Part shown: positions 1 through 47,330 of the stretch, piece after piece | Layout: every line of letters begins with the position of its first letter | How positions within the stretch are numbered: the first letter of the stretch is position 1 | NCBI GenBank assembly: GCA_018714385.1 | Contig: DVNL01000007.1 | Span: 6,037-70,036 of the forward strand | Reading direction: 5' to 3' | Origin: Candidatus Enterosoma merdigallinarum | GTDB lineage: Bacteria > Bacillota_I > Bacilli_A > RFN20 > CAG-288 | DNA: 64,000 nucleotides | Program-made: the position numbers and the translations under genes | Notes under the pieces: model-generated | Database searches by the model: none | What the model was told of the DNA's origin: nothing | What the model saw: only the letters and a program-made list of their open reading frames with translations

Positions 1-993
1 ATGGACGAGAAGGTTCTCACCCTCGCCAAAGAGTTCGATGAAAGCCCGACGGACGCTGCTCTTGAAAAGAGCGATGCCTTCTTTGAAGAAAGCATACCCG
101 GGCTTGGCATTGAAAAAGGCATTGTCGAAACAAAGTATTCTTATTGCTTTACAATCGACGATGTCGATCTTTTCTTTGTTTCGGAAGATTTCTCCCTTCT
201 CTCCCTTGGTCTTGTTCCCTTTGATGTCGTCACGGCCCCGAAAGCGAAGACGGCCTATGCCATCGGGACGGAAAGCGTCTCTCTTTCCGGCCTTGCAGAC
301 CTTTTGGGTGTCGATATCCTGTGGAGCAAGGATCCCGCCGAAGACAACGGACAGATCGTCTTTCCGTCGTATTGTGCCCTTATTCTCAATATAGCCGACA
401 TGGATCTGGCGAAGGTGAAGGCAGACAGCTTCCTGACGTATTGTACTTTGAGCCTGGAAGGGACACTCACGGATCAGGAGATCTATCGTCTTTATATGAT
501 GTCCAAGGCGGAGAACCTTTTCCCGTTGGCATTTGACGACTTCATCTATCCGGCCCGCAACTATTCCCTTTTCTATCCGGTGATCCATTCCATTTCCGCC
601 CTTGGCATCGTCCTTTCCCTGATCGTGCTTTGCTGTGCCGTTCTTTCTCAGGCCATCGTCGACTATCTCAGGGAAAAGGATGATCTTGGGGAGACGGCCT
701 TGCTTCGGCTTTTCGGCCTGGATAGGCGAGGCTATGTTCTCATGAAGACCTCTTCCTCCCTTCTTCCAATTCTCTCGGGAAGCCTTTTGGCCTTGATTCT
801 CTATGCCTTGTTTATGGCGGCATTCAAGGCGGCAAAGGGGTTCACGTTCTTCTTTGCCCCGCTTCTTTACTTTGCCTATTTCCTGCCTTCCGTCCTTCTT
901 GGACTTCTGAGTGCGCTTTATGCTTTCCTTCTCTACCGAAAGACGGATGGCAGGGCCTATTCGATATTGGAAGGAAACGAAAAGAAGGAATAG
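1..993 (+). CDS. ABC transporter permease (FtsX/MacB-like), C-terminal part; 5' end probably outside window
   Basis: Soluble region followed by FtsX-type TM helices and 'ETALLRLFG' motif, as in the other fused permeases in the window. Confidence 0.6.
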   Translation: MDEKVLTLAKEFDESPTDAALEKSDAFFEESIPGLGIEKGIVETKYSYCFTIDDVDLFFVSEDFSLLSLGLVPFDVVTAPKAKTAYAIGTESVSLSGLADLLGVDILWSKDPAEDNGQIVFPSYCALILNIADMDLAKVKADSFLTYCTLSLEGTLTDQEIYRLYMMSKAENLFPLAFDDFIYPARNYSLFYPVIHSISALGIVLSLIVLCCAVLSQAIVDYLREKDDLGETALLRLFGLDRRGYVLMKTSSSLLPILSGSLLALILYALFMAAFKAAKGFTFFFAPLLYFAYFLPSVLLGLLSALYAFLLYRKTDGRAYSILEGNEKKE

Positions 994-1054
994 CGTTCAA
1001 CAAGCCCTTATGCCATCTTCCGAAATGGAGGGAATCGGAAAGAATCGCGACTTT

Positions 1055-1106
1055 CGGGGAAAGTCTTTTATTAGCAGGGATAGCTAATAAAAGACTGCCT
1101 TCCCCG
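1055..1106. repeat. Long inverted repeat / hairpin
   Basis: agtcttttattagc (1062-1075) / gctaataaaagact (1083-1096) perfect 14-bp arms, extended by cggggaa / ttccccg. Confidence 0.85.
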
Positions 1107-1128
1107 TCATTGCCTGCAGGAATTGCGA

Positions 1129-1149
1129 CAAGGAAATGTCATTTCCTTG
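1129..1149. repeat. Perfect 10-1-10 palindrome (operator- or recombinase-site-like)
   Basis: caaggaaatg-t-catttccttg. Confidence 0.8.
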
Positions 1150-1224
1150 GGACCTGTATCAAATCTGTATCACGAGGGCGGCCCGAGGGGCTTCTGGTGT
1201 GTGTGAGGCATGAGGTGTCGGACG

Positions 1225-1246
1225 AAAAAAGGGGGATTGACCCCCT
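1225..1246 (-). terminator. Intrinsic terminator after small peptide gene
   Basis: Minus strand ggggg-tcaat-ccccc followed by T6, about 12 nt after the stop at 1259. Confidence 0.7.
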
Positions 1247-1247
1247 C

Positions 1248-1345
1248 TTGCAAAGATTTTAGAGAAACGATAAGATGATAGTGACCAGTTGTAAGACTGC
1301 CACTATCAGTTTGAGCACTAGAGGTGCGATCTCTAGTGCTTTTTT
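1248..1345 (+). ncRNA. Candidate cis-antisense antitoxin sRNA (~1283-1345) with its promoter
   Basis: TTGCAA(1248)-17 nt-TAAGAT(1271) promoter; 10-bp hairpin agcactagag/ctctagtgct (1314-1340) plus T-run; lies antisense inside the peptide CDS. Confidence 0.55.
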
Positions 1346-1360
1346 CGTTCGCCTTTTCAT
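1259..1360 (-). CDS. 33-aa hydrophobic peptide, candidate type I toxin (MKRRTKKALEIAPLVLKLIVAVLQLVTIILSFL)
   Basis: SD AAGGAGG 8 nt before ATG (1360); basic N-terminus plus one TM helix; own terminator. Confidence 0.7.
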   Translation of the reverse strand: MKRRTKKALEIAPLVLKLIVAVLQLVTIILSFL

Positions 1361-1647
1361 GCGCGAGCCCTCCTTTCGAGAATCGAGAAGGAGGGGCAAT
1401 TTTGCTTTGTGCAATCTATCGCTTGCCGCTCCCATGCCAAGGCATAGTTCTATTTTCAAGTCACTTGTGTTTGTAACATTTTGTCCCGGAAAAAGCGCTT
1501 TCATCCCAGGTTCTTGAAAACGATATCTTGTCTTTTTATCGTAAAGAAAAAGGGAGGAGGGAGATGCTTGCGTCAGGATTTATAACTGCTGTTGGTTTGG
1601 ACTTCACATACGTCAACTTTCACTATTTCACATTGAGAGGTTGATTC

Positions 1648-2409
1648 ATGAAAAGGAAAAACGCCCTGCCGGTCTTGGCTTGCCTTCTGATGGGAAGTGC
1701 TGTCTCTTGCTCCACTTCCTCCTCGTTGACGGAAGATAAGGTGTATTTGAAATTCCAATCGACCATCATGAACCGTAATGTCGATCAAGACTGCGATGTC
1801 ATCTGTACCCTTTTCGATGACCATGAGGCGACGTTCAGCATCCTGGAAGATTCTTTCCGATGGAAGGAAAACGATGGCTATGGATTGACGATATCTTCCG
1901 AAGAACACGACATTTTCGTTGATTTCGACCGATATTCGGCCACGCATTATTTCTTCTGCGAAATCGAGGGGACGACCTATCGCTTTGAGGCAAAGGATAC
2001 TTCCTATGTCCAGAATTTGAGCTCGGACTATTCGCCGGCCTATCAGCGCCTTGGGGCATACGAATTCAGCGGCCATGGAACGACAAGCGGAGTGGAGACC
2101 ACCGGGAAGGTTTTCCTGCTGGATGACGAAAGTCGGACCGTGTACGTGTTTCCTCAAGGTCCTGACGGTCGATCGACGAACGTTGTTTTTGTCTCATATG
2201 GCTGGACCTTTTCAAACGGCGTCTATTCCGTTCCCTTTGGCGGAGAGAATATCCTGTCGTCTCATTGCGACATACCGGGTAAGAGAGGCTATCGACTTCA
2301 GATCCCGGGCGTGGGCATTTCCTATAGCAACTACTACTTGGTCGAGGACGAGGGATTTGACTGGCGGGACTATCAGGATTCCGACTTCCAGATTGAAACC
2401 GGAAAGTAA
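1648..2409 (+). CDS. Uncharacterised lipoprotein (253 aa), paralog of 14858..16120
   Basis: Signal peptide ending AVSC; SD gaggt; shared motifs with the 14858 protein. Confidence 0.75.
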   Translation: MKRKNALPVLACLLMGSAVSCSTSSSLTEDKVYLKFQSTIMNRNVDQDCDVICTLFDDHEATFSILEDSFRWKENDGYGLTISSEEHDIFVDFDRYSATHYFFCEIEGTTYRFEAKDTSYVQNLSSDYSPAYQRLGAYEFSGHGTTSGVETTGKVFLLDDESRTVYVFPQGPDGRSTNVVFVSYGWTFSNGVYSVPFGGENILSSHCDIPGKRGYRLQIPGVGISYSNYYLVEDEGFDWRDYQDSDFQIETGK

Positions 2410-2608
2410 GACGAATTGAAAAAGAGAAGCTGTCAACGCTTTCTCTGCTTCCGTTCTATTGGGAGGCGTGGGTTGTCGAAAAAGGGCGGAGAGAGACAGC
2501 TGGAGGGATGGCGTTAAAAGAGATTTATATAAAGAATTTATTTTTTATCTGAATATTATCATATAAAAAGTGCTTATATAATGATATTTTATGTCTTGAG
2601 CAATTTAT

Positions 2609-3919
2609 TTATTCTTTGATAGCTTTTATCTGCATGGCAAGGGGTTTGCGAGAAAAGCGGATTTTGCCATAGGCAAAGAGGAAGGGAAGCAAAAGGGCGA
2701 AAAGGATCGGCACGAGAAGCCAAGGTGTCGAGGGAAGATAGGCATAGAGGCTTGAGGAAAAGATGGTGGCGATGCTGTTTTCCAAACTGCCTTTGAGGCA
2801 AAAATAGAGGATTAGGCTGATGCCGCTTTCCAAGACGGCCACGACAAAAAGGGGAAGAGAAGATAGAAAAGCGAACGTGTTTCTGGAAAAGCCGATCGTT
2901 TGAAGAAGAAGCCGTCTCTTCCCTTCTTCTTTTGCGTATGCGAAAGAGAGAAGGAAAAGCGTCGCGGCAAAGAAGAGAAGGCAGGCCACAAGGAGAAGAA
3001 AGACAAGATACCATTGCTTGTCGAGGAAATTCATGGCGTTGGCATCGTTGGGCAAAAGAATCATGTCCTGTGCCAAGATGGCATCGGCATCAAAGGAGAG
3101 AAGGGAAGTGAAGACAAGTGCAAAGAAAGAGAAAAGGGCGAGCAGCAAAAAGCCTAGAAGGGTACGAAAGAGACAGTGTCGGATCGTCAGAAGGGGAAGG
3201 GCAAAGAAGGCTCTCTTGGGAAGGAGCAAAAACGGGCTTGCCGTCGATTCCTCTTTTGACTCGGATGCCGGCGCAGGCTCAAGGAACTTTCCTTGATGAA
3301 GATGAAGGAGAATGATATCTGGCGGAAGAGCCTCTTCTTTGAAGTCATGGGCAACGACGATGACGGTTTTTCTTTTTGCGAGTTCCTCCAAAATCCCATG
3401 GACAATCTTGGCGTTCCTCTCGTCGAGATTTCCTGTCGGCTCGTCCAAAAGAAGGATACTTTTGTCTTCCAGGAGGATTCTGGCCAGGGCCACGCGCATT
3501 CTTTCTCCCATGGATAGGCTTTCGACTTTCTGCGCCTTTTTGTCCAAGATGCCAAGACCTGAGAGAGACTTCTCTATTCTTTCGTTGTTTTGGCAGACGA
3601 GTCTCAAGTTATCTAAGACGCTCCACTCCGGAATGACGTTTTCGTCCTGGGACAGAAAGGAAATGTTTCTTCGGCGAAAATCCTCCCGCTCTTTCTCCGT
3701 CATTGCCCCGGTGTCGTTGCCGTCGATGAAGACGGATCCTGACGTCGGCTTGTCCAAAAGGCCTATCAAATTCAGGAGAGTACTCTTTCCACAGCCGCTC
3801 CTTCCTTTGATGACATACAGTCGGCCTGGGACAAAGGAGTAGTCGATCCCTTTCAAGACAGCCTGTTCTTTTCCGCTTTCCAGGAACGCTTTTCGAAGCT
3901 TCTCAATGCGAATGGTCAT
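2609..3919 (-). CDS. ABC transporter ATP-binding/permease fusion (MacB/LolD-like)
   Basis: GRSGCGKST, LSMGERMRVALAR, LLLDEPTGNLD, then TM helices; start taken at MTIRIEK (SD ggag). Confidence 0.85.
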   Translation of the reverse strand: MTIRIEKLRKAFLESGKEQAVLKGIDYSFVPGRLYVIKGRSGCGKSTLLNLIGLLDKPTSGSVFIDGNDTGAMTEKEREDFRRRNISFLSQDENVIPEWSVLDNLRLVCQNNERIEKSLSGLGILDKKAQKVESLSMGERMRVALARILLEDKSILLLDEPTGNLDERNAKIVHGILEELAKRKTVIVVAHDFKEEALPPDIILLHLHQGKFLEPAPASESKEESTASPFLLLPKRAFFALPLLTIRHCLFRTLLGFLLLALFSFFALVFTSLLSFDADAILAQDMILLPNDANAMNFLDKQWYLVFLLLVACLLFFAATLFLLSFAYAKEEGKRRLLLQTIGFSRNTFAFLSSLPLFVVAVLESGISLILYFCLKGSLENSIATIFSSSLYAYLPSTPWLLVPILFALLLPFLFAYGKIRFSRKPLAMQIKAIKE

Positions 3920-6098
3920 GTTTCTTTCTCCGTGGCAGAAGAAGGGGAAGCAAGAAGACAAGGACGACAAAAAGGAAAGACAGGAAAAGGGCCAGGAAGC
4001 CGTAAAGATAGGAGAAGAGAAGCGATCCGGGGAAGAAGGAGTAGATGGCCTTCACGACCGGCTGGAATAGGGAGGGCGATAGGATGGCGGAAAGAAGGAA
4101 GGACGGGAAAGCGATCGTCAAGATGGAACAGAGATAGAGGAGAAGGCGGTCTTTCTTCCGGAATCCCCAGAGGATGAGAAGAGTCTCCTCTCGCCGAAGG
4201 TCCTTTTCGATCGTGATGAGATAAAGCAGTGCGATCAAGATGGCGATGCCGAAGAAAGACAGGGAGAGAACGATCCACATGGTTCTAGCCTGCCCCTGTA
4301 TGAAGGGGAAGATATTTTGGACATAGAAACCGTCGATGTCGATCTTGCCGTCGAGAACCTCTTTTTCGTTATCGAGCAAGTAGCTTAAGGGATAGCTCGT
4401 TTCCGAAAAACCGACGCGCAAGGAGAAAAGCTCTGAGGAAATCTTCTCTAAGACAACTTTCTGGACAAGGGAGGGGAGAGTCCATGCCGCTTCGTCATCG
4501 ATGACGCCATAGCAACCGACGATCGTCAAAGAATAAGTTTCCGTTTTTTGGAAGGCGTTTGTCGGCGTGACAAGGTCCAGGACGAGAGAGAGGCCCTCTT
4601 CCTTTAGGAAGGCATTTCCTATGGCATTATCCGCACCGAAGAAGTATTGCTCGAGGCAGGAGTTGTCCACGACGATCTCGTTTTCGTTCTTTGGCAAGCG
4701 TCCGAGAAGATAGTAGCTTTTTTCGCCGGTGGCATAGAAATTCTCTTCCGCCTCACTTCTGCTCGGGAAGAAAGTGTAATTCCGACAATCTTTGAGGTCG
4801 GACGAAAAATAGGTATCCCTTTTGTTCTCTTCGACTCCGATCGAGTCGTAGAAGTCATCGATCGTATCGGAAAGATTCCCTCCTTGGAAGAGCGACACGT
4901 TTTGCCTGAGATATTCCCGATAGGCCGATGATGAGGCGATTGCTGTCGGGTAGGAGGAGAAGTCTCCGGAGTCGAAATAGCCTGCGATGACAAACTCGTA
5001 GTCATTCCGCCCGAGAGGGAAAGAAGAGCCGACATCGGAAGAGAGACCTTTGTCATGGATCTGATCGCGGATGGCAGAATCAATCAGGATAGGGATGCTA
5101 TCCCCATTGTCTTCGGTATCGGAAAAAGAGGGAAGGGCACCATAAAGATCACGGATATCCTCATCGAGATAGATGGCATATTTCCCGTCTTGGTCGTTGT
5201 TTGCCGCAAGACAGGGGATCATGTCCTCATCGATCAAAGAATTTGTATGACAAACGTATGTCTTTTTGTCTTCCAATGCCGAAGCGAGACTGCCTTTGGC
5301 ATCAAAGCCAAAGTAGTTGAAGCCGAAGAATCCAAAGAAAAAAGCGACAAAGAGGAGAACAGCAGTGGAAAAATAGGCGGCCTTGTTTGACAGCGCTTTG
5401 TGAACACTCAAAGAGAGAAGGGGCTTTTTGATTCTATTGACCTCTATCTGCTTCTCATTCTTGGCTTTGCCATCCTCTTTTTTGATATTGTTCTCGACGA
5501 TTTTTCCATGCTTGAGAACGATCTTTCCATCGGCACAATTCTCGAAAAGCTCCAAGTCATGGCTGGCGACAAGGACAAGGTGGTCCTTTGAGAATTCTTT
5601 CAACTTCTGAATCACAATCTGGGCATTATCATCGTCGAGGTTGGCCGTCGGTTCGTCGGATAGGAGAATGGGCGTGTTTTTCAGAATGCCACAAGCCAAA
5701 GCCAGGCGCTCGCTTTCCCCTTTTGAAAGCTTGGAGGCCTTTTCGGATTCTTCCAATGTGAAAGCGTCAGCCATCTTTAATGCTTCTTGCCGATTGGATG
5801 TGGCAAGAAGCAGATTGTCCATAACGGTCAATCCGTTGAAGACATTGTTCTCGACACGAACATATGTCAAAGAATTGCGATAGAAATTTTCATCGCAGCA
5901 CACCTTCTTTCCGTCAAAAAGAATTGTTCCGGAATCCGGTTCTTTCAACCCGGCTATCAAATCCAGCAGGGTCGTTTTCCCGCAGCCGGAAGCCCCCGTG
6001 ACAAGAAAGAGGCCAGAGTCTGGAAAAGACAAATCATGGATTTCCAAAGAGAAGTCCGTATCACCATATTGTTTAGTGAGGGAGATTATTGCAATCAT
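3903..6098 (-). CDS. ABC transporter ATP-binding/permease fusion with large extracellular domain (MacB-like)
   Basis: GASGCGKT, LSKGESERLALA, LLSDEPTANLD; TM1, large loop, three further TMs. Confidence 0.85.
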   Translation of the reverse strand: MIAIISLTKQYGDTDFSLEIHDLSFPDSGLFLVTGASGCGKTTLLDLIAGLKEPDSGTILFDGKKVCCDENFYRNSLTYVRVENNVFNGLTVMDNLLLATSNRQEALKMADAFTLEESEKASKLSKGESERLALACGILKNTPILLSDEPTANLDDDNAQIVIQKLKEFSKDHLVLVASHDLELFENCADGKIVLKHGKIVENNIKKEDGKAKNEKQIEVNRIKKPLLSLSVHKALSNKAAYFSTAVLLFVAFFFGFFGFNYFGFDAKGSLASALEDKKTYVCHTNSLIDEDMIPCLAANNDQDGKYAIYLDEDIRDLYGALPSFSDTEDNGDSIPILIDSAIRDQIHDKGLSSDVGSSFPLGRNDYEFVIAGYFDSGDFSSYPTAIASSSAYREYLRQNVSLFQGGNLSDTIDDFYDSIGVEENKRDTYFSSDLKDCRNYTFFPSRSEAEENFYATGEKSYYLLGRLPKNENEIVVDNSCLEQYFFGADNAIGNAFLKEEGLSLVLDLVTPTNAFQKTETYSLTIVGCYGVIDDEAAWTLPSLVQKVVLEKISSELFSLRVGFSETSYPLSYLLDNEKEVLDGKIDIDGFYVQNIFPFIQGQARTMWIVLSLSFFGIAILIALLYLITIEKDLRREETLLILWGFRKKDRLLLYLCSILTIAFPSFLLSAILSPSLFQPVVKAIYSFFPGSLLFSYLYGFLALFLSFLFVVLVFLLPLLLPRRKKHDHSH

Positions 6099-12637: not shown

Positions 12638-13986
12638 ATGAATTTTGTGGAATCGCTTTCTTTTTATTTCACGATGGTCTGTGATGCGACGCAATATATC
12701 ACCATTTTCATCTTTTCTCTTTCCCTTCTTGCCCTGTCCTTGCCGAAGACCTTCGATAAGAAAAGCATTCTTTTCCTTGTTTTGCGTTTTCTTATCTTTT
12801 ATGCCTCCTTCCTGTTGATAGGCGCCCTTTTCTTCTCCTTGGATCGTATGATTCCGCATTCGTTCGGCATTCTTTTCAATCTCTCCTATCTTTTCCTTCC
12901 TCTTATCTATATTTTTATCTTCCTCAAGGATGATTTCTGGCATCGCTATGTGAAATTCTCCTTTCTGGCAGCCTCCTTCTTTGTTGCCTTGGAGGTGTCA
13001 AGAAACATGGGCCTGATCCTCGGTGAAGTGACGGGCGACAACTTTGGCTGGGTGGTCTTCGGGCGAACATGCCCGTTCCTTTTCTGTCTCCCTGTTTCCT
13101 ACCTCATGTGGCGCTACGATATTTCAAAGTACAAGAACCTCAGCAAGCCGCTTTTGGCCATTGTCAGTATCATCGCCTATTCCCTTATTGCCGTTGCGAT
13201 CTTTGAAAACCAGTCCTCTCCGGGAAGGGAGGATTCCATTTCGGTGTTGGCATCGTTCTCCTGCCTTTACCTCGTTCTTCTGATCATCCTGTGCCTGACA
13301 TACTATTGCTTCTACTATTTCACGAAGTCAAGGCACGAGGCTCTTTTGGCCGACATCCGCCTTTCCTTGGGAGAAGCCCAGATGGACCAGCTTCAGTCGG
13401 ATATCTTCAATCGTGAGGAACTCTCCAAGATGCGCCACGATCTGAAAAATCAGCTCTCCTACATTCGGACGCTTCTCAAAGAAGGAAAGATAGAGGAAGC
13501 CACCGGCTTCATTGAGGAATTGACGCATCAACACGACGACGTCCTCAACAGTTTCTCATGCTCAAACAGCGTCATCGCCGGCATCATCAACATGGAGACC
13601 GCCAAGGCCAAGAGACGCGGAATCAAGCTTGTCGCCCATGCCGTCGTCCCCCCCACCTTCCCATCGAACAGACCGACTTGTGCTCCTTGATTTCGAATCT
13701 TCTGGACAATGCTTTCTTCTATTCCGACGGGCGCATTCCGCCGAAGATCGATATCTTTACTTATAAGGATTATCTGAGGATCATCGTCGTCAATTCCGTT
13801 CCCGAAGGCTCGGAGAAGGAAGCCGTGGCCTTGAAGACGTCAAAATCGCGGAAGAGGCACGGATACGGCACGAAGATCATCCGCTCGATCGCCAGCTCCT
13901 ATGACGGCTATGCCCGCTTCGAGGCCGACAAGGGAAGGTTCACCGCAGATGTCGTCTTGATGCTCAAGGAGAAAAAGGATGCTTGA
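12638..13986 (+). pseudogene. AgrC-like membrane sensor histidine kinase (GHKL), frameshifted at C7 tract 13648-13654
   Basis: Multi-TM N-terminus and H-box 'RHDLKNQL' in frame 12638..13690; N-box 'DLCSLISNLLDNA' and G-box 'HGYGTK' in frame 13558..13986; adding one C joins them (VVPPHLPIEQTDL). Confidence 0.85.
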
Positions 13987-14713
13987 TATATGTCTGTGCG
14001 ATGACGATTCCATGGCGCTCAGCATCGCCCAGACGGGATGCCAGAGCTTCTTTTCGGACAAAGGGATCGACGTCAACATCGAGTGCTTCTCTTCCGGGAA
14101 AGAGCTTCTTGAAGAGAGTCAATCTGGGCACTTCAAGCTGGCCATTCTGGATATCGACATGCCCGATATCAACGGCATCGAGCTTGCGGACAAGCTGACG
14201 AAGCAGAATTTCAATATCACCGTGATGTTCCTCTCCCAAAGGGAAGACCTCGTTTTCGAGTGTCTCTCCGTTCATCCTTTCGCCTTCATTCGGAAGGGGC
14301 GCTTCGTCGAGGATCTTAGAAAGGCCATGACGCTTTATGTCGAGACGGTCTATAACCGCGAAGACGACCAGGAGACGCTGACGATCAAGAAGAAAACGGG
14401 GATGCTGACCTTGGCCATCAGCGAGATCCTATATATAGAAGGAAAGAGGAACTATCAGGTGTTCCACCTCCGCAACGGCGAAAAGGTCGAATCCCGAGTC
14501 TTGATGCGGGATCTGGAAAACGCCCTGCTCGACAAAGGGTTCCTGCGCATCCAGAAAGGCTTCCTTGCCAATGCCCGATATATTCGGAGGCTGAACAAGA
14601 AAACGGTCCTGCTGGCAAACGGTGTCGAACTGCCCCTGTCCACAAGCAAGAGCGAGGAAATCATGCAACGCTTCCTGGACATCACTCGGGATACGAACCT
14701 GACTCTTGAGTAG
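13979..14713 (+). CDS. LytTR-family response regulator (AgrA-like)
   Basis: Receiver 'ICLCDDD...LDIDMPDINGI'; LytTR 'EILYIEG...FLRIQKGFLAN'. Confidence 0.92.
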   Translation: MLDICLCDDDSMALSIAQTGCQSFFSDKGIDVNIECFSSGKELLEESQSGHFKLAILDIDMPDINGIELADKLTKQNFNITVMFLSQREDLVFECLSVHPFAFIRKGRFVEDLRKAMTLYVETVYNREDDQETLTIKKKTGMLTLAISEILYIEGKRNYQVFHLRNGEKVESRVLMRDLENALLDKGFLRIQKGFLANARYIRRLNKKTVLLANGVELPLSTSKSEEIMQRFLDITRDTNLTLE

Positions 14714-16772: not shown

Positions 16773-19700
16773 ATGACCACGAAAAAGAAAAGAATCATCA
16801 CTTTGGGTTCTGTCGGTGCTGGCCTCCTTGTCATCATGTCCGCCGTCCAGATCGCAGCCGGCATGCAGGCCAAGAACCTGGATCTTCTCTTCCCTGGAGA
16901 CATCATCGTCAACGATGACGGATCCGGCCTGAGCGGAGATTACATCGACTTCGAATACGATTCGCAGGAAGACGCCCTCAAGAACGCCCAGCAGAAGACT
17001 CAGCTGACCGCTGAAGAGGGCATGACCCTTCTGAAGAACGAAAACAACGCCCTTCCTCTCGCCAAGACGCAGAAGGTCACCATCCTCGGCTATTATTCCT
17101 GGCACAACAACATGTCCGGCGGCGAAGACCCTGCCACGACCAATGGAGCCATCTCCATCGGAAAAGGACTCGAAGCTGCCTTTGACACGAACAAATCCGT
17201 CAACGAAATCTATGCTTCGGCTTCCGGAGACTTTGCCAATCCTGAAGAAACATTCAAGGACGTCAGAAACACCTTCGGCGAATACGACACGGCCATCATC
17301 ACCATAAAGAGAAACTCCGGCGAAGGAAACGACCAGTCCATGGATGCCGGCGCCAGCGAGTACCACAGAACTGGCTTGACGCTCAACAATGCCGAATATG
17401 CCCTCATCGACTACGCCAGCAAGAACTTCAAGAAGGTCGTCCTTGTCATCAATGCCGCCAATACCATGGAACTTGGCTTCCTTGACGAGAACGATCCCAA
17501 CATGTCCGCCGATGGCATGTATACCGATCCCTACAGCAAGAAGCAGTATGACTTCTCCAAGGTTCAGGCTGCCGTCTGGGCCGGCTGCTGCGGCTCCCAG
17601 GGCGGAACGGCTCTGGCCAACATCCTCAACGGCACCGTCAATCCTTCCGGCCACCTTCCCGACACCTACATCCGCGACCTGACGAAGGATCCTTCCTACA
17701 AGAACTTCGGCTCCTACAAGTATTCCAACTCCGTCGATCTCAACTCCTATCAGGAAGAGACCTTCTTCGTCGAATACGAGGAAGGCATCTACATCGGCTA
17801 TCGTTATTACGAGACCGCTGCCTACGAAGCCAGCAAGGGCAACTACAGCGGATTCGACTATGAGCAGGAAGTTGTCTTCCCCTTCGGCTACGGCTTGAGC
17901 TACACCAACTTCGAGATGGAGTATGCCGGAACGCCGACCTATGATGAGGAGACGGGCGTCTATCACTTCGACGTCAAGATCACCAACGTCGGCACTGTCG
18001 CCGGAAAGGGCGTCGCCCAGATCTTCGTCAACGTCCCCTATCAGAAGGGACAGGTCGAGAAGGCCCATGTCGTCCTTGGCGGATTCGCCAAGACCGAGAA
18101 GGCCCTCGAACCCAACCAGTCCGAGACGGTCTCCATCGACATCAACCAGGACTACTTCACCAGCTACGACTATAAGAACGAGAAGAGCTACGTCCTCGAT
18201 GCCGGCACCTACAACTTCTACCTCTCCGAGAACGCCCACTCCTGGGCCGAGATCGACAAGGAAGCCTCTGCCGAAAAGAGCAAGCATCTCTGGAGCACGA
18301 CGCTTTCGGACAAGGTCGTCTTCCGCGATGATGCCGACGGCAAGAGAAAGACCGACAAGACCGAAGCTGTGAACAAGGAAGACAACGAGCTCAACTACAA
18401 GTTCAAGGCCTACAACGAAGGCAGCACCGGCGACGGTTTCGTCCATGACTTCACCAGAGCCGACTTCAAGGCCTCCTTCCCGACCTCTCCGACCGGCAAG
18501 GACTTCGAACTGACCGACGAGAGAGCTCTCGAGCAGGTCGGAATCTACGATGTCTGGGACGAGAAGAACAACCCCATCGAGGAGATGCCTGAAGTCAACG
18601 TGGATAGGACATCCTACAACCTCGCCCAGATGCGCGGCGTCGACTTCGACGATCCGATGTGGGACGACTACATCAACCAGTTCACCGTCGACAAGATGGT
18701 CGAGATGTTCTCCAACGGCGGATGGCAGGAAGTCGCCGACGAAGAGAACGGCGTCCCCATCTCCTATGATGCCGACTCTCCTTACGGCTACTATGCCCAC
18801 GCCTTGACGATCGGAAACATCAACAAGTGGTACTGCGGTGCCCCGATGGTCGCCGCCACCTTCAATGTCGATCTCGCCTATGAACTCGGCCATGCCTTCG
18901 GCGAGGAAGCCCATGCCAACACCTACTACAACGACGGCAAGGGAACCCTCATCACGGGTCTCTACGGCTATGGCGCCAACACCCATCGTTCCGCTTTCGG
19001 CGGCCGTAACTACGAGTACTATTCCGAAGATCCTCTCCTCTCCGGCAAGATGGCTGCCCATGAGGCCAGCGGCGCTTCCGAGAAGGGTCTGATCACCTTC
19101 ATGAAGCACTACACCCTCAACGATCAGGAGACCAACAGACAGAAGAACGGCTATTGCGCCTGGGTCAACGAGCAGGCCTTCCGTGAAATCTACGTCAAGC
19201 CTTGGGAAATCTACATCAAGGAAGCCAAGATGGAGATCAAGTACTACGCCACCGATGAAAACGGCGAGTACATCAAGGAACTGCAGACCAAGACCATGCC
19301 CGCCGCGACTGGCATGATGACCGCCTACAACCGTATCGGCGCGACCTATGCCGGTGCCTCCGATTCCCTTGTCGGCATCCTGAGAAACGAGTTCGGCTAT
19401 ACCGGATCGACCATCACCGATGCCGGCGGACAGCCCAACACCTACATGACCACCGACTTCATGATCCGTAAGGGCGGAAACCTCACCCTCGCCAACAACG
19501 GAACCAACGGTCTCTACGACACCGAATCCGCCACCGCCATCTACTGGCTCAAGGACGCCACCAAGCACACCCTCTACAACAAGGCCAACTCCAATGCCGT
19601 CCTCGGCCTTGCCCCCGGTGCCTCCATCACCATGACCACGGCGCCTTGGCGCATCGGTCTCTACACCGCCTGGGGTGTCGTCGGTGCCTTGGCTGTCGCT

Positions 19701-19793
19701 GACATCGTCGTCATCTCCTTGATCGCCACCGACAAGATCAAGATCGCCGAAAAGGCTCCCAAGAAGGAAGAAGAGACAGGTTCAGAATTCTAG
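16773..19793 (+). CDS. GH3 beta-glucosidase, permuted domain order, N- and C-terminal membrane anchors
   Basis: 'EEGMTLLKNEN', 'YEEGIYIGYRYY', 'PFGYGLSYT', Fn3, then 'GGRNYEYYSEDP', 'KHY', 'GSTITD'; TM at both ends. Confidence 0.92.
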   Translation: MTTKKKRIITLGSVGAGLLVIMSAVQIAAGMQAKNLDLLFPGDIIVNDDGSGLSGDYIDFEYDSQEDALKNAQQKTQLTAEEGMTLLKNENNALPLAKTQKVTILGYYSWHNNMSGGEDPATTNGAISIGKGLEAAFDTNKSVNEIYASASGDFANPEETFKDVRNTFGEYDTAIITIKRNSGEGNDQSMDAGASEYHRTGLTLNNAEYALIDYASKNFKKVVLVINAANTMELGFLDENDPNMSADGMYTDPYSKKQYDFSKVQAAVWAGCCGSQGGTALANILNGTVNPSGHLPDTYIRDLTKDPSYKNFGSYKYSNSVDLNSYQEETFFVEYEEGIYIGYRYYETAAYEASKGNYSGFDYEQEVVFPFGYGLSYTNFEMEYAGTPTYDEETGVYHFDVKITNVGTVAGKGVAQIFVNVPYQKGQVEKAHVVLGGFAKTEKALEPNQSETVSIDINQDYFTSYDYKNEKSYVLDAGTYNFYLSENAHSWAEIDKEASAEKSKHLWSTTLSDKVVFRDDADGKRKTDKTEAVNKEDNELNYKFKAYNEGSTGDGFVHDFTRADFKASFPTSPTGKDFELTDERALEQVGIYDVWDEKNNPIEEMPEVNVDRTSYNLAQMRGVDFDDPMWDDYINQFTVDKMVEMFSNGGWQEVADEENGVPISYDADSPYGYYAHALTIGNINKWYCGAPMVAATFNVDLAYELGHAFGEEAHANTYYNDGKGTLITGLYGYGANTHRSAFGGRNYEYYSEDPLLSGKMAAHEASGASEKGLITFMKHYTLNDQETNRQKNGYCAWVNEQAFREIYVKPWEIYIKEAKMEIKYYATDENGEYIKELQTKTMPAATGMMTAYNRIGATYAGASDSLVGILRNEFGYTGSTITDAGGQPNTYMTTDFMIRKGGNLTLANNGTNGLYDTESATAIYWLKDATKHTLYNKANSNAVLGLAPGASITMTTAPWRIGLYTAWGVVGALAVADIVVISLIATDKIKIAEKAPKKEEETGSEF

Positions 19794-22296: not shown

Positions 22297-25200
22297 ATGA
22301 ACAATACCAAGGAAAAGGTCTCCCTTAGACAATGGCTCGTCTTCATTTTCGTCGGCCTTGCCGGACAATTCGCCTGGTCGATAGAGAATATGTATCTCAA
22401 TTCCTATCTTTACTATTTGAACATGAACGCACAAGCCGGGCAGGGCTTCAACTCCTCTCTCATGGTCGCCTTGACGACAGCCCTTAGCGCCATCACGGCG
22501 ACAGTGACGACCATCTTCATGGGATCGTTGACGGACAAGGTGCGGAAGAGAAAGATTTTTATCTCGCTCGGATACATCCTTTGGGGCATCGCGACGGCTT
22601 CCTTTGGCTTGCTCGATGTCGGAAACGCTCAAAGCATCGTTCCCATCAGCATGGCGGCGAGCACGGCGGCCATCCTTGTCATCGTCATCGACTGCGTGAT
22701 GACTTTCCTGGGATCGACGGCCAACGATGCAGCGTTCAATTCCTACGTCACGAAGAACGTCCGGGACGAAAACCGCGGAAAGGTCGAAGGCGTCCTTTCG
22801 ATCCTTCCTCTTGTGGCAATGCTGATCATTTTCGTTGCCCTGAACGGTCTGACTGCCAATGGGCAATGGGATCTGTTTTTCTATGTCGTCGGTGCCATCG
22901 TCATTCTCGTCGGCATCGTCTCCTTCTTCCTCATCCCGAAGGAAAAGCCGGAAAAGCCGAGCGACGAGAAGTTTCTTCCGATTCTCGCGGAAGGCTTCCG
23001 TCCTTCCACCGTCAAGGCGAACAAGAGTCTCTATCTGGTGCTTCTTTGCTATTTCGTCTATGGTGTCGCCATCCAGGTCTTTTTCCCCTATCTTATGGTC
23101 TATGTCGAAAGGACCGTCTCCGTCCCGAATTCCGGCTCGTCCTTCCTGACGCCTTTTGCCATCGTCATGGCTGTCGCCTTGCTCCTTGGATCGGCTGGAA
23201 GCGTCCTCATCGGCTTTCTTTCTGATAAGAAGGGAAAGATCAAAATGATCCTTCCGACCTGTGCCATCCTCGGCTTGGGCCTTCTGATGCTATTCTTTGC
23301 TCCGGACATCCCCTCCGATACGGGACGCTATGCCTATACGGCAATCGCCGGTCTCGTCATGATCCTTGGCTATGTCGCCGTGCCGACGATCCTCAACTCC
23401 TTGGTGCGAGACTACATTCCGAAAGGGAAAGAGGGCTCCTTCATGGGCGTCCGCATGCTCTTTGTCGTCGCTCTCCCCATGTGCATCGGCCCCTTTATCG
23501 GCGATGCCTTGAACCAGGCCACAGGACAGACTTACATCAACGAGTACGACATCGTTTCCGCGTTGCCGTCGAAGTTCGGCTATATCGCAGGGTTGGTTTT
23601 GCTCCTTCTCATCGTCGTCCCTTATTTCTTCCTTGCTCGTTCGACGCGATATGAAAAGAACAATGGCTATCTTGTCGCTAGCCTTCTCAAGAATGGTGAG
23701 GAACTTCCTGCGATAAAGCGTGGGAAGAAACATCCGCGTCCATCCTTCAGAAGAAAGTCGTTTGTTTCCCTTGAAGGGGAGTGGGATTATTGCATCACAA
23801 AGGACGACGCGCTTCCGGAAGCATATGACGGAAAGATTCAGGTTCCCTTTGCCATCGAGTCCCCTCTCAGTGGGGTCAATCATCTTCTCTTGCCGGAAGA
23901 GAGGCTATTCTATCGCCGGAAAATCGTGCTCGATTCCGCCTTCTATCAAGAACACGTCTTCCTCTGTTTCGAGGGTGTCGATCAGTTTGCCGATGTCTTT
24001 GTCGACGGGAAGCACGTCTGTTCCCACGAAGGCGGTTATACGCGTTTCCGAGTCGACGTCCGTCCCTATCTCTCCTCGCCCTCCTTCGAGCTTGTCGTCC
24101 GAGTGCGGGATCGGACCGATTCGTCCTACTTGATGACGGGCAAGCAGCGGTTGACGCCGAACGGATGGTTCTATTCTTCCTCAAGCGGAATCGTCAAGAG
24201 CGTGTATCTTGAATCCGCCGGAAAGGCGGCGATAGATGGTCTCGTTCTTGTCCCCGACTTTGAGAACAAATGCGTCCACGTCACCGTCCGATCGGAAGTC
24301 GAAGGCTCCTGGATGGTGGAAGTCGGCGAGGAGTCCGTCGAGGTCCAAACCGGAAAGACGGTCGCCGTCCCTCTGATCCCTTTCCGCCCGTGGTCTATCG
24401 AGGATCCCTACCTCTATGATGTTCATGTCTTCGGGCAGGACGACGAAGTCTTTTCTTATTTCGGGGTCCGTGCCATCGAGGTCGGCGGCGGCAAGGACGG
24501 CAAGAGGCATATCTATCTCAACGGGAGAAAGATTTTCCTCAACGGGCTTCTCGACCAGGGCTATTATCAGGGCGGCGGATTGACCGCTCCCGACGAATCG
24601 CTTTTCTTGAAGGATATCCAGAACGCCAAGGCTCTCGGTTTCAACTGCCTTCGCATGCACGTGAAGGTCGAAGAGGACCGATTCTATTATCTCGCCGCCA
24701 AAGAAGGGATCTTTTTGATCCAGGACATTCCAAACGGCGGAGAACACATCCCCTTCTTCAACGTCGTCTACCCCCGTGCGAGCGTCTTCCTGTTCAATCG
24801 TCCCTTCTATCTGACGAGGAAAGGATACGGAAGAAGGAACGCCGAGGGCTGCAAGAAGTTCATCGACGAGAGCTTTGCCATCCTCAAGGACCTTGCCTTC
24901 AATCCCGCGATCGTCGTGGTGACGATATTCAACGAGGCGTGGGGTCAGTTCGATCCCGAGAAGCTCTATTCGATTCTCAAGAGGGAGTATCCACAGTTCC
25001 TCTTCGATACGGCTTCGGGATGGCTGGACACGCCGAAATCCGATCTCTTCTCCATCCACAGCTATACGGTTCCCCATTTGCGGCGGAAGAGAGGGGAAAG
25101 GCCCTATGTCCTGACGGAGATAGGGGGAGCCTCTTTGAAAGTGGCCGGCCACTATCTCTATCCCAAAGTCTACGGACATCATGTCTGTCGCTCCGAGGAG

Positions 25201-25407
25201 GCCTTCCAGAAACGGTATCGGAAACTCTACGAAGGCTTCTATCGGCAAATCGAGGACGGGTCCCTCAACGGACTTGTCTATACGCAGCTCAACGATTGCG
25301 AGACGGAGGCTAACGGCATCTACACCCTGGACAGAGCCGTCCTCAAGCTTCCTTGCGAGATGGTCAAGACCATCAACGGCACCATCGCCCGCCTCGCAAA
25401 AGAATGA
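22297..25407 (+). CDS. MFS sugar transporter fused to GH2 glycoside hydrolase
   Basis: ~450-aa MFS ('GSLTDKVRKRK', 'GFLSDKKGK') then GH2 ('HPRP..R...SLEGEWDY', 'LDQGYY', 'FNEAWGQF', 'TEIGG', 'YTQLND.E.EANG'). Confidence 0.88.
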   Translation: MNNTKEKVSLRQWLVFIFVGLAGQFAWSIENMYLNSYLYYLNMNAQAGQGFNSSLMVALTTALSAITATVTTIFMGSLTDKVRKRKIFISLGYILWGIATASFGLLDVGNAQSIVPISMAASTAAILVIVIDCVMTFLGSTANDAAFNSYVTKNVRDENRGKVEGVLSILPLVAMLIIFVALNGLTANGQWDLFFYVVGAIVILVGIVSFFLIPKEKPEKPSDEKFLPILAEGFRPSTVKANKSLYLVLLCYFVYGVAIQVFFPYLMVYVERTVSVPNSGSSFLTPFAIVMAVALLLGSAGSVLIGFLSDKKGKIKMILPTCAILGLGLLMLFFAPDIPSDTGRYAYTAIAGLVMILGYVAVPTILNSLVRDYIPKGKEGSFMGVRMLFVVALPMCIGPFIGDALNQATGQTYINEYDIVSALPSKFGYIAGLVLLLLIVVPYFFLARSTRYEKNNGYLVASLLKNGEELPAIKRGKKHPRPSFRRKSFVSLEGEWDYCITKDDALPEAYDGKIQVPFAIESPLSGVNHLLLPEERLFYRRKIVLDSAFYQEHVFLCFEGVDQFADVFVDGKHVCSHEGGYTRFRVDVRPYLSSPSFELVVRVRDRTDSSYLMTGKQRLTPNGWFYSSSSGIVKSVYLESAGKAAIDGLVLVPDFENKCVHVTVRSEVEGSWMVEVGEESVEVQTGKTVAVPLIPFRPWSIEDPYLYDVHVFGQDDEVFSYFGVRAIEVGGGKDGKRHIYLNGRKIFLNGLLDQGYYQGGGLTAPDESLFLKDIQNAKALGFNCLRMHVKVEEDRFYYLAAKEGIFLIQDIPNGGEHIPFFNVVYPRASVFLFNRPFYLTRKGYGRRNAEGCKKFIDESFAILKDLAFNPAIVVVTIFNEAWGQFDPEKLYSILKREYPQFLFDTASGWLDTPKSDLFSIHSYTVPHLRRKRGERPYVLTEIGGASLKVAGHYLYPKVYGHHVCRSEEAFQKRYRKLYEGFYRQIEDGSLNGLVYTQLNDCETEANGIYTLDRAVLKLPCEMVKTINGTIARLAKE

Positions 25408-28146: not shown

Positions 28147-30129
28147 ATGAAGAAGGAAAATGTCGAATATCTCATTCTCGTCGGTCTTTTCCCCGTCTAT
28201 CTCGCTTTGATGTCGCTATCCCTCCTCTCCGGATCCGCTTTTTTGATGTTCATTCTCATCGGTGTCAGCGGCGGCTATCTCTTCGTCGTCCTCGTCGCGA
28301 ACCTGGTCTTTCTCTTCCTTCGCCGCGATCGGTACGAGGAATCGAAAGCCGTTCTGGACAAGTTCCGCCAAACGGAAAAGGGAGAGGGGCCGAAGCCGAA
28401 GCTGTTGCTGAGGAAGCCTTTCCTGTTTCTCGTCTTTTCCTATCTTTACATCCTTCTCCTTCTTTTGAGCCTCTTCTTCCTCGGCTTTGCGACGATGTTC
28501 TTTTTGAGGACGAACGTCTGCTACGTCATCCCTGCTCTTGTCCTTTCCCTTCTTCTTTCCACCTTGACGACGACAATCATCGGCCTTTTCCTTCCGGAGA
28601 GAAGGCGTTCCGTCACAATGGACTCCGACAGCCAGGTCCATAGGCTGTTCCATGCGCTTTTCCCGAAGAAAAAAGTCCGTGTCATCGTCGACAGGGGAAA
28701 TGGCTTTTCGATCGCCAGGACGCCCGCCTGGACCACTCTGCGTCTTGGCGTCAACCTTCTTCTTTTCCTCGATCCCGAGGAATTGGACGGCCTTCTTCGC
28801 TATGAGACGTCTGTCTATCGCGATCCGCTCTTGAAGAAGGGGCATCGACTCTCCAGAAGGATCGAGACGATGGAACGGTTGACCGAGAGGATGACGTTTT
28901 TGAACTTCCTGAACGTCCTCTTCTTCCGCTTCCTTCTCTTCGTCAAGAAAAAGACGTGCGTGGATTTCCTCGACGTCAAGGACAGGATGGAAGAGCGTCT
29001 TCGCGATGACATTCTCCTTTCCGAAGGCCGGGAAAAGGCGTATCTTTTTGCCCTCGGAAAGAGGATGAGTCTCGATATCTTTGATGGCCTGGAACTCCCG
29101 AATCCTTTCTATAAAGCATGGGAAGACTATCCTGAGGACAGCTTTATTAGGACATTTGGACAAAAATACGAATACATTCAAAAGAACGAAGATAGATTTA
29201 AAAATTATCTGAACAATTCTCCAATATTCAAAAAGAAGATGGAGCATTATTCCATCGCCGAAATCGATCTTCGAAAGAAAGACACCACGGGCGAATACTA
29301 TCGCCAGGCCAAGAGTGTTGCGATGAAGCTTGGGAGAAAGCACCTCAAAAGGTGGAGGGAGGAGTACGAGATCGCAAGATACCGGAACTATCAGGCTTTC
29401 AAGGATATTCTCTCCCTCCGCTTCGAATCGGACGAAAGCCTTGAGATCGCCCTCAGGGGACTGGTTGCCGAAAAAGACGGCGAGGGCGAAAGAGCCTCTT
29501 CGCTCTATGAGGAAGCCTTATTGAAAGATGAGGAGAACGTCTTGGCCCTTTACCATTCCGGTCTCCTTCTTTTGCGGAAGGACGACGGAAGAGGGGTAGA
29601 GAGGGTCAAGAGGGCAAGCGACATCGATGCCAACTATCTCGAGTCCGGACTTCTTGCCATCGATGCCTTCTATCGGCGAAACGGCCTTCTGGAGGAGAAA
29701 GACTGGACGGACGACTGCAATATCCGACTTATCGAACAGAGGCTGGATGAGAAAGAGAAGGCAGAGCTGACATCCAATAGTCTCATGCGTGAAGACGGCC
29801 TTTCAAAGGAAGGTATCGAAAGGATCGTCTCCTTGGCCGTGCAGCTTCCTTGCGTGGAAAGAATCAAGATGGTCGAGCAAGAGACCCGGGAGGGGGTCGT
29901 CAAGCATCATGTCGGTTTGCTTTTCCGGGAAAAGACTTCCTGGCAGGAGAGATATCGCGCCTTCCTCGCCTTCTATGTTCTTCTGGACGACTTCCGTCTC
30001 GGTCAGGAACCGATCCGCTTTTTCCTGACTCCCTTGACGGGAGAAAAGAAATACGATGTCTATTCCTCTTTCCTCAACGGAAAGCACTCGAAGGTCGTCT
30101 ATGAGACGGAGGACAGGAAAAATGGTTGA
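28147..30129 (+). CDS. Membrane protein with degenerate M48-peptidase-like segment and TPR-like helices
   Basis: Four N-terminal TMs; 'LRLGVNLLLFLDPEELDGLLRYETS'; 'ASSLYEEALLKDEENVLALYHSGLLLL'. Confidence 0.55.
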   Translation: MKKENVEYLILVGLFPVYLALMSLSLLSGSAFLMFILIGVSGGYLFVVLVANLVFLFLRRDRYEESKAVLDKFRQTEKGEGPKPKLLLRKPFLFLVFSYLYILLLLLSLFFLGFATMFFLRTNVCYVIPALVLSLLLSTLTTTIIGLFLPERRRSVTMDSDSQVHRLFHALFPKKKVRVIVDRGNGFSIARTPAWTTLRLGVNLLLFLDPEELDGLLRYETSVYRDPLLKKGHRLSRRIETMERLTERMTFLNFLNVLFFRFLLFVKKKTCVDFLDVKDRMEERLRDDILLSEGREKAYLFALGKRMSLDIFDGLELPNPFYKAWEDYPEDSFIRTFGQKYEYIQKNEDRFKNYLNNSPIFKKKMEHYSIAEIDLRKKDTTGEYYRQAKSVAMKLGRKHLKRWREEYEIARYRNYQAFKDILSLRFESDESLEIALRGLVAEKDGEGERASSLYEEALLKDEENVLALYHSGLLLLRKDDGRGVERVKRASDIDANYLESGLLAIDAFYRRNGLLEEKDWTDDCNIRLIEQRLDEKEKAELTSNSLMREDGLSKEGIERIVSLAVQLPCVERIKMVEQETREGVVKHHVGLLFREKTSWQERYRAFLAFYVLLDDFRLGQEPIRFFLTPLTGEKKYDVYSSFLNGKHSKVVYETEDRKNG

Positions 30130-30835
30130 GATCGCACGCAGGTCGCCCCGCTCCAAAGACATGCTCATTCTCTCCGTCCTTCTCAAGTCCGTGATCCTTC
30201 TTTTCTCCTTGGGCGCCTTCATCGTCACCGTGGTCGAGGCCATCGAGGATCGTTCGGCCCTCATCTTCTCCTATTTCACCATCATTTCCAACTTCTTCAT
30301 CCTTGTCACGACGATCGTCTTTCTCGTCGCGGACATCGGACGTTATTTCGACAAGGCGTGGTATGGCGGGCGCCTTGTGTTCATGCTTCGTTTCTTCGCC
30401 ATTATCGCCATCACGATGACGGGCCTTCTTTTCGACTTCGTCCTCGTTCCGGTCGGCGGCATCGAACTCCTGAATTCCTTCACGTCCGTGAGTTTCCACG
30501 TCGTGATCCCCTTCCTTTCGATGGCGGACTTCATTTTGACCAATACCGTCTATAAAATCCGCATCGCGGACATCTTCCTCTCCCTTGTCTACCCCATTGT
30601 CTATCTTGGCATGATCATGGCCATGTCCTATTCCGGCGTCCGTTGGGATGGCGGGACGACAGCGGCGCCATACCCCTTCTTGGACTATCTGGCCAACACG
30701 TGGTTTGGAAAAGGCGACTATATCGGTGTCTTCTATTGGATCTGGATCCTCCTTGCCGTCTTCCTTCTTCTGGGATTCCTCTACCGTTTTCTGCAATACA
30801 TTGCAAAAAGAAGGCATTTCCATCTTTTCCGATAG
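30122..30835 (+). CDS. Pr6Pr-family membrane protein
   Basis: 'YFTIISN', 'HVVIP', 'YPIVYL', 'PYPFLD'; about six TMs. Confidence 0.75.
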   Translation: MVEIARRSPRSKDMLILSVLLKSVILLFSLGAFIVTVVEAIEDRSALIFSYFTIISNFFILVTTIVFLVADIGRYFDKAWYGGRLVFMLRFFAIIAITMTGLLFDFVLVPVGGIELLNSFTSVSFHVVIPFLSMADFILTNTVYKIRIADIFLSLVYPIVYLGMIMAMSYSGVRWDGGTTAAPYPFLDYLANTWFGKGDYIGVFYWIWILLAVFLLLGFLYRFLQYIAKRRHFHLFR

Positions 30836-44919: not shown

Positions 44920-44931
44920 TTGTCGTTCTTC

Positions 44932-46812: not shown

Positions 46813-46813
46813 C

Positions 46814-47125
46814 CTAGTATTCTTTCGATGGGGAAGGATACTTGATGGCATTCCTCTTCATTTTCTCGAGGACGATATCGTCGAGATCCAGATGATATTT
46901 CTGGGCGATCTGGACGGCATATATCAGGACATCCGCCAGTTCTTCCTTGATTTTCTCGAGGCTTTGGTCGCAATCCAAATCCGTTCCACTCCATTGGTAT
47001 ATCTCCAGAAGTTCGGAAGCCTCTAAGGCAAGAGAGACGGCCAGATCTTTTCCGTTATGATATTTGTCCCAATCTCTTTCTTTGTTGAAGGCATCGATTT
47101 TGGCAATGGTTTTGTCGCTGAGCAT
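46814..47125 (-). CDS. MazG-like nucleotide pyrophosphohydrolase
   Basis: 'ERDWDKYH', 'EASELLE', 'EELADVLIY', 'NAIKYP'; SD aggagg. Confidence 0.92.
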   Translation of the reverse strand: MLSDKTIAKIDAFNKERDWDKYHNGKDLAVSLALEASELLEIYQWSGTDLDCDQSLEKIKEELADVLIYAVQIAQKYHLDLDDIVLEKMKRNAIKYPSPSKEY

Positions 47126-47330
47126 ATTTTCCTCCTGACACACTATTTTACACGAAAAAAGAAAGGGCATGTTTATGAAAACAAGGGGCAAAAGATAGTA
47201 TCTGTCCCTTTTTATAGAGCCCCTTTGCCAGAACGAAAGATGATAATCATAAGAAATGATCTGCTAATCCAATGAAGAACCTTTGATGATTCGCGTTGAA
47301 CCATCTTTTGTTTTGCACTAATATGATTAT

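Follow-up and report, generated by a model that had tools for sequence, protein, structure and literature searches.

Annotation of type I toxins is poor and few lineages are known to have them; TisB is a model for antibiotic persistence. As set out in part of PMC8594479, type I toxin mRNAs span 150-400 nt, and the antitoxin RNA is placed differently among the families: TisB/IstR-1 of Gram-negatives has a non-overlapping sRNA on the 5' side, the Gram-positive families have an antisense RNA on the 3' side that partially overlaps the mRNA, and, among the systems covered in that part, an RNA that is nested in the mRNA and overlaps the ORF occurs only in AapA/IsoA and Ibs/Sib. According to a portion of PMC2887945, TisB/IstR-1-type loci are reported only from E. 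coli and close relatives. For TisB itself, K12 and Q19 matter most for function, D22L is partly functional, and at least one C-terminal Lys is mandatory (Leinberger and Berghoff 2024, PMC11449926, in part).

The locus described here lies in a 64-kb stretch of DNA, analysed over its whole length and called the window below. Two plus-strand genes (1-993 and 1648-2409) lie 655 bp apart, and the interval contains a complete minus-strand unit, which we read, with a probability of about 0.5, as a chromosomal type I toxin-antitoxin-like module of a new variant, in which a TisB-like toxin core is under cis-antisense control. On this most likely reading, the module belongs to a very small family, seen at four loci, with an inverted charge layout. 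Its features are as follows.

1413-1440, minus strand: toxin promoter-like site, TTGGCA (1440-1435), 16-nt spacer, TAGATT (1418-1413); 9/12 matches.
1226-1406, minus strand: predicted toxin mRNA of ~180 nt, its ends inferred from promoter and terminator.
1367-1397, minus strand: Shine-Dalgarno (SD) hairpin, in which an anti-SD (1397-1385) pairs with the SD AAGGAGG (1375-1369).
1259-1360, minus strand: toxin ORF of 33 codons plus stop, with ATG at 1360 and stop at 1261-1259.
About 1313-1341, both strands: shared hairpin with a 10-bp perfect stem and a 7-nt loop; plus-strand T6 at 1340-1345.
1275-1309, minus strand: third toxin-mRNA hairpin, 13 pairs over codons 18-29; -15.0 kcal/mol.
1224-1245, minus strand: intrinsic terminator of the toxin mRNA, with the stem at 1245-1232 (GGGGG-TCAA-CCCCC) and then a T-run.
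1248-1276, plus strand: candidate antisense promoter, TTGCAA (1248-1253), 17-nt spacer, TAAGAT (1271-1276); 8/12 matches.
1283-1345, plus strand: predicted antisense RNA of ~60 nt, its ends inferred from promoter and terminator.

Both this locus and TisB/IstR-1 of E. coli and related enterobacteria encode a single-helix toxin (33 aa here, 29 aa in TisB), and the SD is folded into a stem here as the tisB ribosome-binding site is (PMC5397157, in part). However, TisB carries a C-terminal Lys, whereas the peptide here is basic at its N-terminus, which predicts the opposite orientation; the first-pass annotation had singled out this position of the charge, and it is a real difference from TisB. The RNA side also differs, since IstR-1 is divergent, does not overlap the mRNA and targets the 5' UTR (PMC8594479, in part), while the RNA here is predicted to be cis-antisense within the CDS. 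IstR gave no Rfam match over 1-4000 even at E<=10. No LexA-type box was found within 1380-1480, and the pattern had 39 matches across the window against 43 expected; the pattern used is a Gram-positive one that may not be the host's. TisB/IstR-1 loci are reported only from E. coli and close relatives, and the gene content of the window does not look enterobacterial: Pfam searches of 32 window ORFs returned glycoside hydrolases, MFS sugar transporters, a BspA-type LRR protein, a LytTR regulator and a YlmH-type protein, suggesting a carbohydrate-degrading anaerobe rather than an enterobacterium.

In layout, the closest systems are Ibs/Sib and AapA/IsoA, which have a nested antisense RNA overlapping the ORF, a small hydrophobic toxin and control by mRNA folding, as predicted for this locus. 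Both are described from Gram-negative bacteria, and no Pfam, NCBIfam or Rfam similarity to them was found, so the likeness is one of gene arrangement alone; moreover, Sib covers an entire ORF, whereas the predicted antisense RNA here covers codons 6-26 only. The nesting had been taken earlier as a sign of novelty, but it is already described for AapA/IsoA and Ibs/Sib in the available part of PMC8594479, and the locus is thus better viewed as a TisB-like peptide in an Ibs/AapA-like layout. Fst/RNAII, TxpA/RatA, BsrG/SR4, SprA1 and SprG have convergent transcription, intrinsic terminators and small transmembrane toxins, as predicted here, and Fst is also 33 aa long (PMC11449926, in part). Their antisense RNAs are 3'-sided and only partly overlapping (PMC8594479, in part), in contrast to the nested one predicted here, and the peptide had no Pfam or NCBIfam match to the Fst, TxpA, BsrG, SprA1 or SprG families. 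DinQ of DinQ/AgrB is likewise a small single-helix peptide; a DinQ-like cluster appeared at rank 16 in the ESM Atlas (score 0.83, a lead only), with no Pfam match.

The minus-strand elements of the first-pass annotation, namely a 33-aa basic and hydrophobic peptide, its SD in a stem at 1367-1397 and a terminator, are all present. It had omitted a minus-strand promoter, and TTGGCA-16-TAGATT at 1440-1413 supplies one (9/12, a quality found at 0.38 sites per kb per strand across the window). This site puts the predicted 5' end of the toxin mRNA near 1406, leaving a predicted 5' UTR of only ~46 nt. The 900-1800 region has four terminator-like sites as compared to 1.2 expected. The predicted mRNA (1405-1226) has a folding energy of -70.5 kcal/mol, compared with -40.5 on average for shuffles (z -7.42; none of 200 shuffles was as stable), and its structure comprises four hairpins plus a short helix that closes the 5' and 3' ends. 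Its SD, 8 nt 5' of the ATG, is held in a hairpin (1397-1367) of 13 pairs with two one-base bulges (-16.5 kcal/mol), with pairing probabilities of 0.93-1.0 for the SD bases and only 0.07-0.09 for the AUG. The general anatomy of a type I toxin mRNA is therefore present, with a predicted length of ~180 nt, its own promoter (9/12), a terminator and a sequestered SD.

The product, MKRRTKKALEIAPLVLKLIVAVLQLVTIILSFL (33 aa; P0001 below), consists of a basic N-terminus, KRRTKK, with charges at residues 2-7, and one transmembrane helix, and it ends in an uncharged ...IILSFL. Its best 20-residue hydropathy is 2.63, inside the range of real transmembrane segments from the window, so that it is small (<60 aa) and hydrophobic with a single helix, as type I toxins are. 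E10, K17, Q24, T27 and S31 form a polar stripe within a 100-degree arc of the helix.

Although the peptide had been regarded as possibly a new family, it does resemble TisB, below threshold, and matched no other family. TisB_toxin was the only Pfam family returned (PF13939; E 9.1e-4, 19.9 bits against a cut-off of 25), and NCBIfam returned only two TisB models (TIGR04459 and NF011340; E 1.7e-4 and 3e-4), with scores under their curated cut-offs (21.3 versus 38 and 20.7 versus 53 bits). By BLASTP, 14 of 24 residues are identical to Enterobacter TisB without gaps (pairwise E 3e-7), including a 10-residue core, LKLIVAVLQL. The stripe residues E10, K17, Q24, T27 and S31 align with TisB D5, K12, Q19, D22 and K26; K17 and Q24, the equivalents of K12 and Q19, are thus present, and both are kept in the related protein P0002 described below, which scores lower against TisB (14.7 bits, E 0.043). 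The C-terminal charge that is mandatory in TisB is absent from the peptide. With a local TisB profile, built from loci that had been selected with a query-derived pattern, the peptide scored 24.4 bits, a value reached by 0 of 20,000 full shuffles (maximum 18.2) and 0 of 20,000 shuffles of the transmembrane part only (maximum 13.8). In the ESM Atlas, clusters of TisB rank first and second (0.87, with 175 shared features, and 0.86), and nucleotide identity to tisB over the core is 38-43/72. When 49 natural 33-aa transmembrane segments from window proteins were used as controls, none matched TisB, but one matched an unrelated short transmembrane family, TM_ErbB1, at E 2.5e-4, and E-values of this size are therefore not proof. 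Given the sub-threshold scores and the missing C-terminal charge, among other things, the peptide is called TisB-like here and is not filed as a member of the family. A narrow literature search returned no pertinent published work on 'TisB-like' loci. An extended minus-strand ORF of 81 aa, starting from 1504, was also considered and set aside; it lacks an SD, and its sole family match is the same TisB one, in the last 33 residues.

Inside the ORF, the plus-strand hairpin and T-run reported earlier are present (about 1313-1341, 10 perfect pairs, or 13 by the count of the tool used; T-run 1340-1345), and this is the only site on both strands of the 64 kb with a perfect stem of at least 9 bp and a T-run. 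On the minus strand, the same sequence gives the toxin mRNA a hairpin in codons 7-16. The plus-strand T-run doubles as the lysine codons K6-K7 and the stem also encodes conserved residues, so the RNA and protein constraints are inseparable. The promoter claimed for the plus strand, TTGCAA-17-TAAGAT, stands as to sequence and spacer but is the weakest element of the module: with 8/12 matches it falls under the threshold of the promoter scan, and sites of that quality occur at 1.42 per kb per strand in the window, which gives a chance of ~9% for one in the ~65-nt useful interval. It is nevertheless the only plus-strand candidate between the terminator of the upstream gene and the hairpin (1066 to 1310). 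It is weaker than the toxin promoter (9/12), and an antitoxin promoter weaker than that of its toxin is unusual. From these elements we infer an antitoxin RNA at 1283-1345, complementary to +16 to +78 of the toxin CDS (codons 6-26); a predicted 64-nt form folds at -21.8 kcal/mol (z -3.4; 1 of 200 shuffles was as stable). Rfam holds no known antitoxin RNA for it. Further along the plus strand, within 1365-1410, the complement of the SD hairpin is followed by AATTTTGCTTTG, and antisense transcripts reading through the first terminator could end there, covering the toxin SD and start codon.

Relatives were found at three further loci, represented by the database proteins P0002-P0004. A word-indexed search with the 33-aa peptide gave two candidates, one being the window's own protein and the other P0002, which is also 33 aa long and is 82% identical to P0001; P0002 was likewise the only match at E<=0.001 in a HMMER search of 1.84 billion representatives covering proteins of all lengths. 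The six replacements (K/R, R/K, I/V, P/T, A/T, F/L) can each be accounted for by one base change, either at an unpaired position or from G.U to A-U, and A21T would convert a G.U to an A-U pair in the third hairpin (1275-1309). The plus-strand 80-aa ORF overlapping the module (1275-1517), when used as a query, led to P0003 (115 aa; one match among two candidates), and P0003 in turn led to P0004 (200 aa; two matches among 15 candidates, one being P0003 itself). Both resemble the window only across the module, up to ~1466, and differ in their flanks, as expected for an autonomous module; we read them as probable antisense-frame ORF calls on two further module copies. Because the toxin and plus frames share wobble positions, most toxin residues at these loci can be worked back from the plus-frame proteins. 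Stops in the toxin frame are impossible at all 28 inferable codons at the P0003 locus and all 26 at the P0004 locus, and 23/28 and 20/26 positions, respectively, are compatible with P0001, while the P0004 locus is compatible with P0002 at 24/26. Toxin-frame changes obtained in this way are conservative (K/R, I/V, A/G, P/S, A/T), with the P0003 locus apparently having K or N where P0001 has Q24; at the P0004 locus, plus-frame replacements are radical (G/D, A/P, F/R) and toxin-frame ones conservative.

RNA structure at the P0002-P0004 loci was likewise deduced from the protein sequences. On that basis, all detectable changes in the 1313-1341 hairpin at the three loci (1324, 1326, 1330) fall in its 7-nt loop, P0003 and P0004 share an 11-residue (~33-nt) insertion that falls precisely within the SD-hairpin loop, and both arms of that hairpin, SD and anti-SD, stay compatible with GGNGG/CCNCC at these two loci. 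Beyond the module, P0003 (80-115) and P0004 (70-200) are alike (LVDDLV.D..GLDD.LVL) and unlike anything in the window; on their contigs, the neighbour of the module is probably a conserved minus-strand gene, which the window lacks. The first-pass claim of a type I toxin-antitoxin module is partly supported: the anatomy fits, and related loci, judged from proteins, keep ORF and hairpins, but the antisense promoter is poor and the nesting is not new.

Other searches for relatives gave less. A scan of a genome collection produced 63 pattern matches at 12 loci, ten of them enterobacterial tisB, and no full-length relative was among the 12 (the window's own genome is not one of them). Locus L006 was rejected as a 14-residue match within a long open frame, and L012 (2986-3060 in a Candidatus Stercoripulliclostridium merdipullorum MAG) as the start of a longer protein. 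This ORF, 403 aa in length, has MRRRTKKALKIVAIVLV at its N-terminus, similar to residues 1-17 of the peptide; a basic-plus-hydrophobic start also serves as an ordinary signal anchor. No paralogues turned up in the window, either by blastn-short, which returned the locus alone, or by the tblastn search that had been proposed; its runner-up, 30101-30205 (E 0.022), falls inside a 259-aa ORF. Plasmid and phage DNA gave no match to the module and plasmid proteins none to the peptide, phage proteins gave one insignificant match (E 3), and PHROGs and PADLOC gave none. Rfam had nothing above gathering in the whole window, with two chance-level matches elsewhere in 1-4000, and no tRNA was found.

The main rival, which we consider possible though doubtful, is a gene for a small membrane protein with no antitoxin RNA, in which the hairpin at 1313-1341 would be an mRNA element, its T-run a by-product of two Lys codons, and the structured mRNA would tune translation or stability with no dedicated antisense RNA. 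Promoter, SD, ORF and terminator are all there for such a gene, the antisense promoter is weak (8/12), the A-run is K6-K7, and ordinary signal anchors have the same shape, as in the L012 ORF, which starts MRRRTKKAL. Against this, the 128 kb of strand scanned contains no perfect-stem terminator other than the plus-strand hairpin and T-run, the promoter candidate 5' of that hairpin has the correct spacing and is the only one in 240 nt, and the tight sequestration of the SD together with the TisB-like core points to a product that needs to stay off. It is unlikely that the locus instead makes one or two structured non-coding RNAs with a 33-codon frame open by chance. The very strong fold (z -7.4) would suit them, a 33-codon open frame is not rare in itself, and no curated protein family is reached; however, a perfect AAGGAGG stands 8 nt 5' of the ATG, P0002 keeps frame, start and length, stops are impossible at the inferable codons of two more loci, the replacements are conservative, and Rfam gives no match.

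The remaining alternatives are all improbable. An exported bacteriocin- or pheromone-like hydrophobic peptide, serviced by the adjacent ABC transporters (2609-6098, minus strand), would fit the two ABC ATPase-permease genes within 1.3 kb and the LytTR response regulator at 13979-14710, but the plus-strand gene 1648-2409 intervenes, the window's flank on the transporter side does not recur at the P0003 or P0004 locus, neither a leader nor a double-glycine motif can be seen, and the peptide has a transmembrane helix rather than the amphipathic character of a secreted one. Marginally less probable again is a decayed remnant, once the N-terminal signal anchor of some larger membrane protein, or elements brought together by chance: the likeness to N-terminal anchors (L012, and the weak match at 30101-30205 inside a 259-aa ORF) speaks for it, while the locus has a promoter, SD and terminator to itself, P0002 is of exactly the same length, the module is kept at at least three other loci with different flanks, and the all-length search of 1.84 billion representatives, with P0002 as its only match, gave no longer intact homologues. 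The least probable of the alternatives takes the plus-strand 80-aa ORF (1275-1517) as the real gene, with P0003 and P0004 as its database 'relatives'. These three ORFs, of 80, 115 and 200 aa, are alike only over the module stretch and show an 11-residue indel and radical replacements; moreover, Pfam and NCBIfam gave no match, an SD is lacking, and a strong terminator sits at codons 13-23 of the 80-aa ORF. The frame of this ORF stays open passively because its wobble positions are shared with the toxin frame.

If the preferred type I toxin-antitoxin reading is right, an ~180-nt minus-strand mRNA (~1406 to ~1226) would encode the 33-aa membrane peptide, and a local hairpin would pair its SD with the adjacent anti-SD as soon as it is transcribed. 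With the SD paired in this way in the computed structure, the full-length mRNA would be poorly translated. A convergent plus-strand RNA of ~60 nt (~1283-1345), perfectly complementary to codons 6-26, would act against the mRNA, and pairing would probably nucleate where the two 7-nt loops of the shared hairpin (1313-1341) complement each other. The duplex would begin 16 nt beyond the first base of the start codon, at the border of the ribosome footprint, and so, by analogy with Ibs/Sib and AapA/IsoA, it may block initiation and expose the mRNA to double-strand-specific cleavage. Should RNA control fail, the peptide would insert with its KRRTKK end cytoplasmic, its helix spanning the membrane with the narrow polar stripe E10, K17, Q24, T27 and S31, and would self-associate and dissipate the membrane potential, presumably as TisB does. 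Such a module would widen the known range of the TisB toxin design and, as a natural variant, help to show which TisB features (K12, Q19, terminal charges, orientation) activity needs; being compact (~180 bp) and fully specified, it is easily tested.

A bolder form of this reading, which we put forward only tentatively, is that a TisB-type depolarising core, the LKLIVAVLQL helix with its essential Lys and Gln, exists outside enterobacteria, in a rare gut-anaerobe lineage. Its anchoring charges would have shifted from the C-terminus to the N-terminus, with the membrane orientation reversed, and a nested cis-antisense RNA and a locked SD would have replaced control by a divergent trans-acting sRNA and SOS induction, whether through ancient homology or convergence. 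If so, type I systems would have a toxin core and an RNA control layer that evolve as separable modules, and the locus would provide a natural 'swapped-charge' variant for testing competing TisB pore models.

Several observations on the surrounding DNA are recorded here in their own right. A 7-bp hairpin at 1049-1065, 3' of the gene ending at 993, is terminator-like on both strands, with a clear T-run on the plus side only. On the plus strand, a strong SD, AAGGGAGGAGGG (1551-1562), precedes the ATG at 1565 of a 26-codon ORF that closes at 1644, 4 nt short of the lipoprotein-like gene 1648-2409, and this may be a leader or coupled small ORF. Farther away, genes of nucleic-acid-surveillance type follow one another at 42433-51624 and may form a defence island; their products are a UvrA-like ABC ATPase, a Schlafen-group-3 helicase-domain protein, an AAA_11/AAA_12 SF1 helicase and an MrcB_N plus NOV_C protein. 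A plus-strand ORF of 1036 aa (22297-25404) fuses an MFS_1 domain (33-399) to glycosyl hydrolase family 2 N-terminal sugar-binding domains, an unusual combination if it is not a sequencing or ORF-calling artefact. Finally, the GH3 protein encoded at 16773-19790 (plus strand) has a permuted domain order, with Glyco_hydro_3_C (84-241) before the Glyco_hydro_3 N-terminal domain (692-885).
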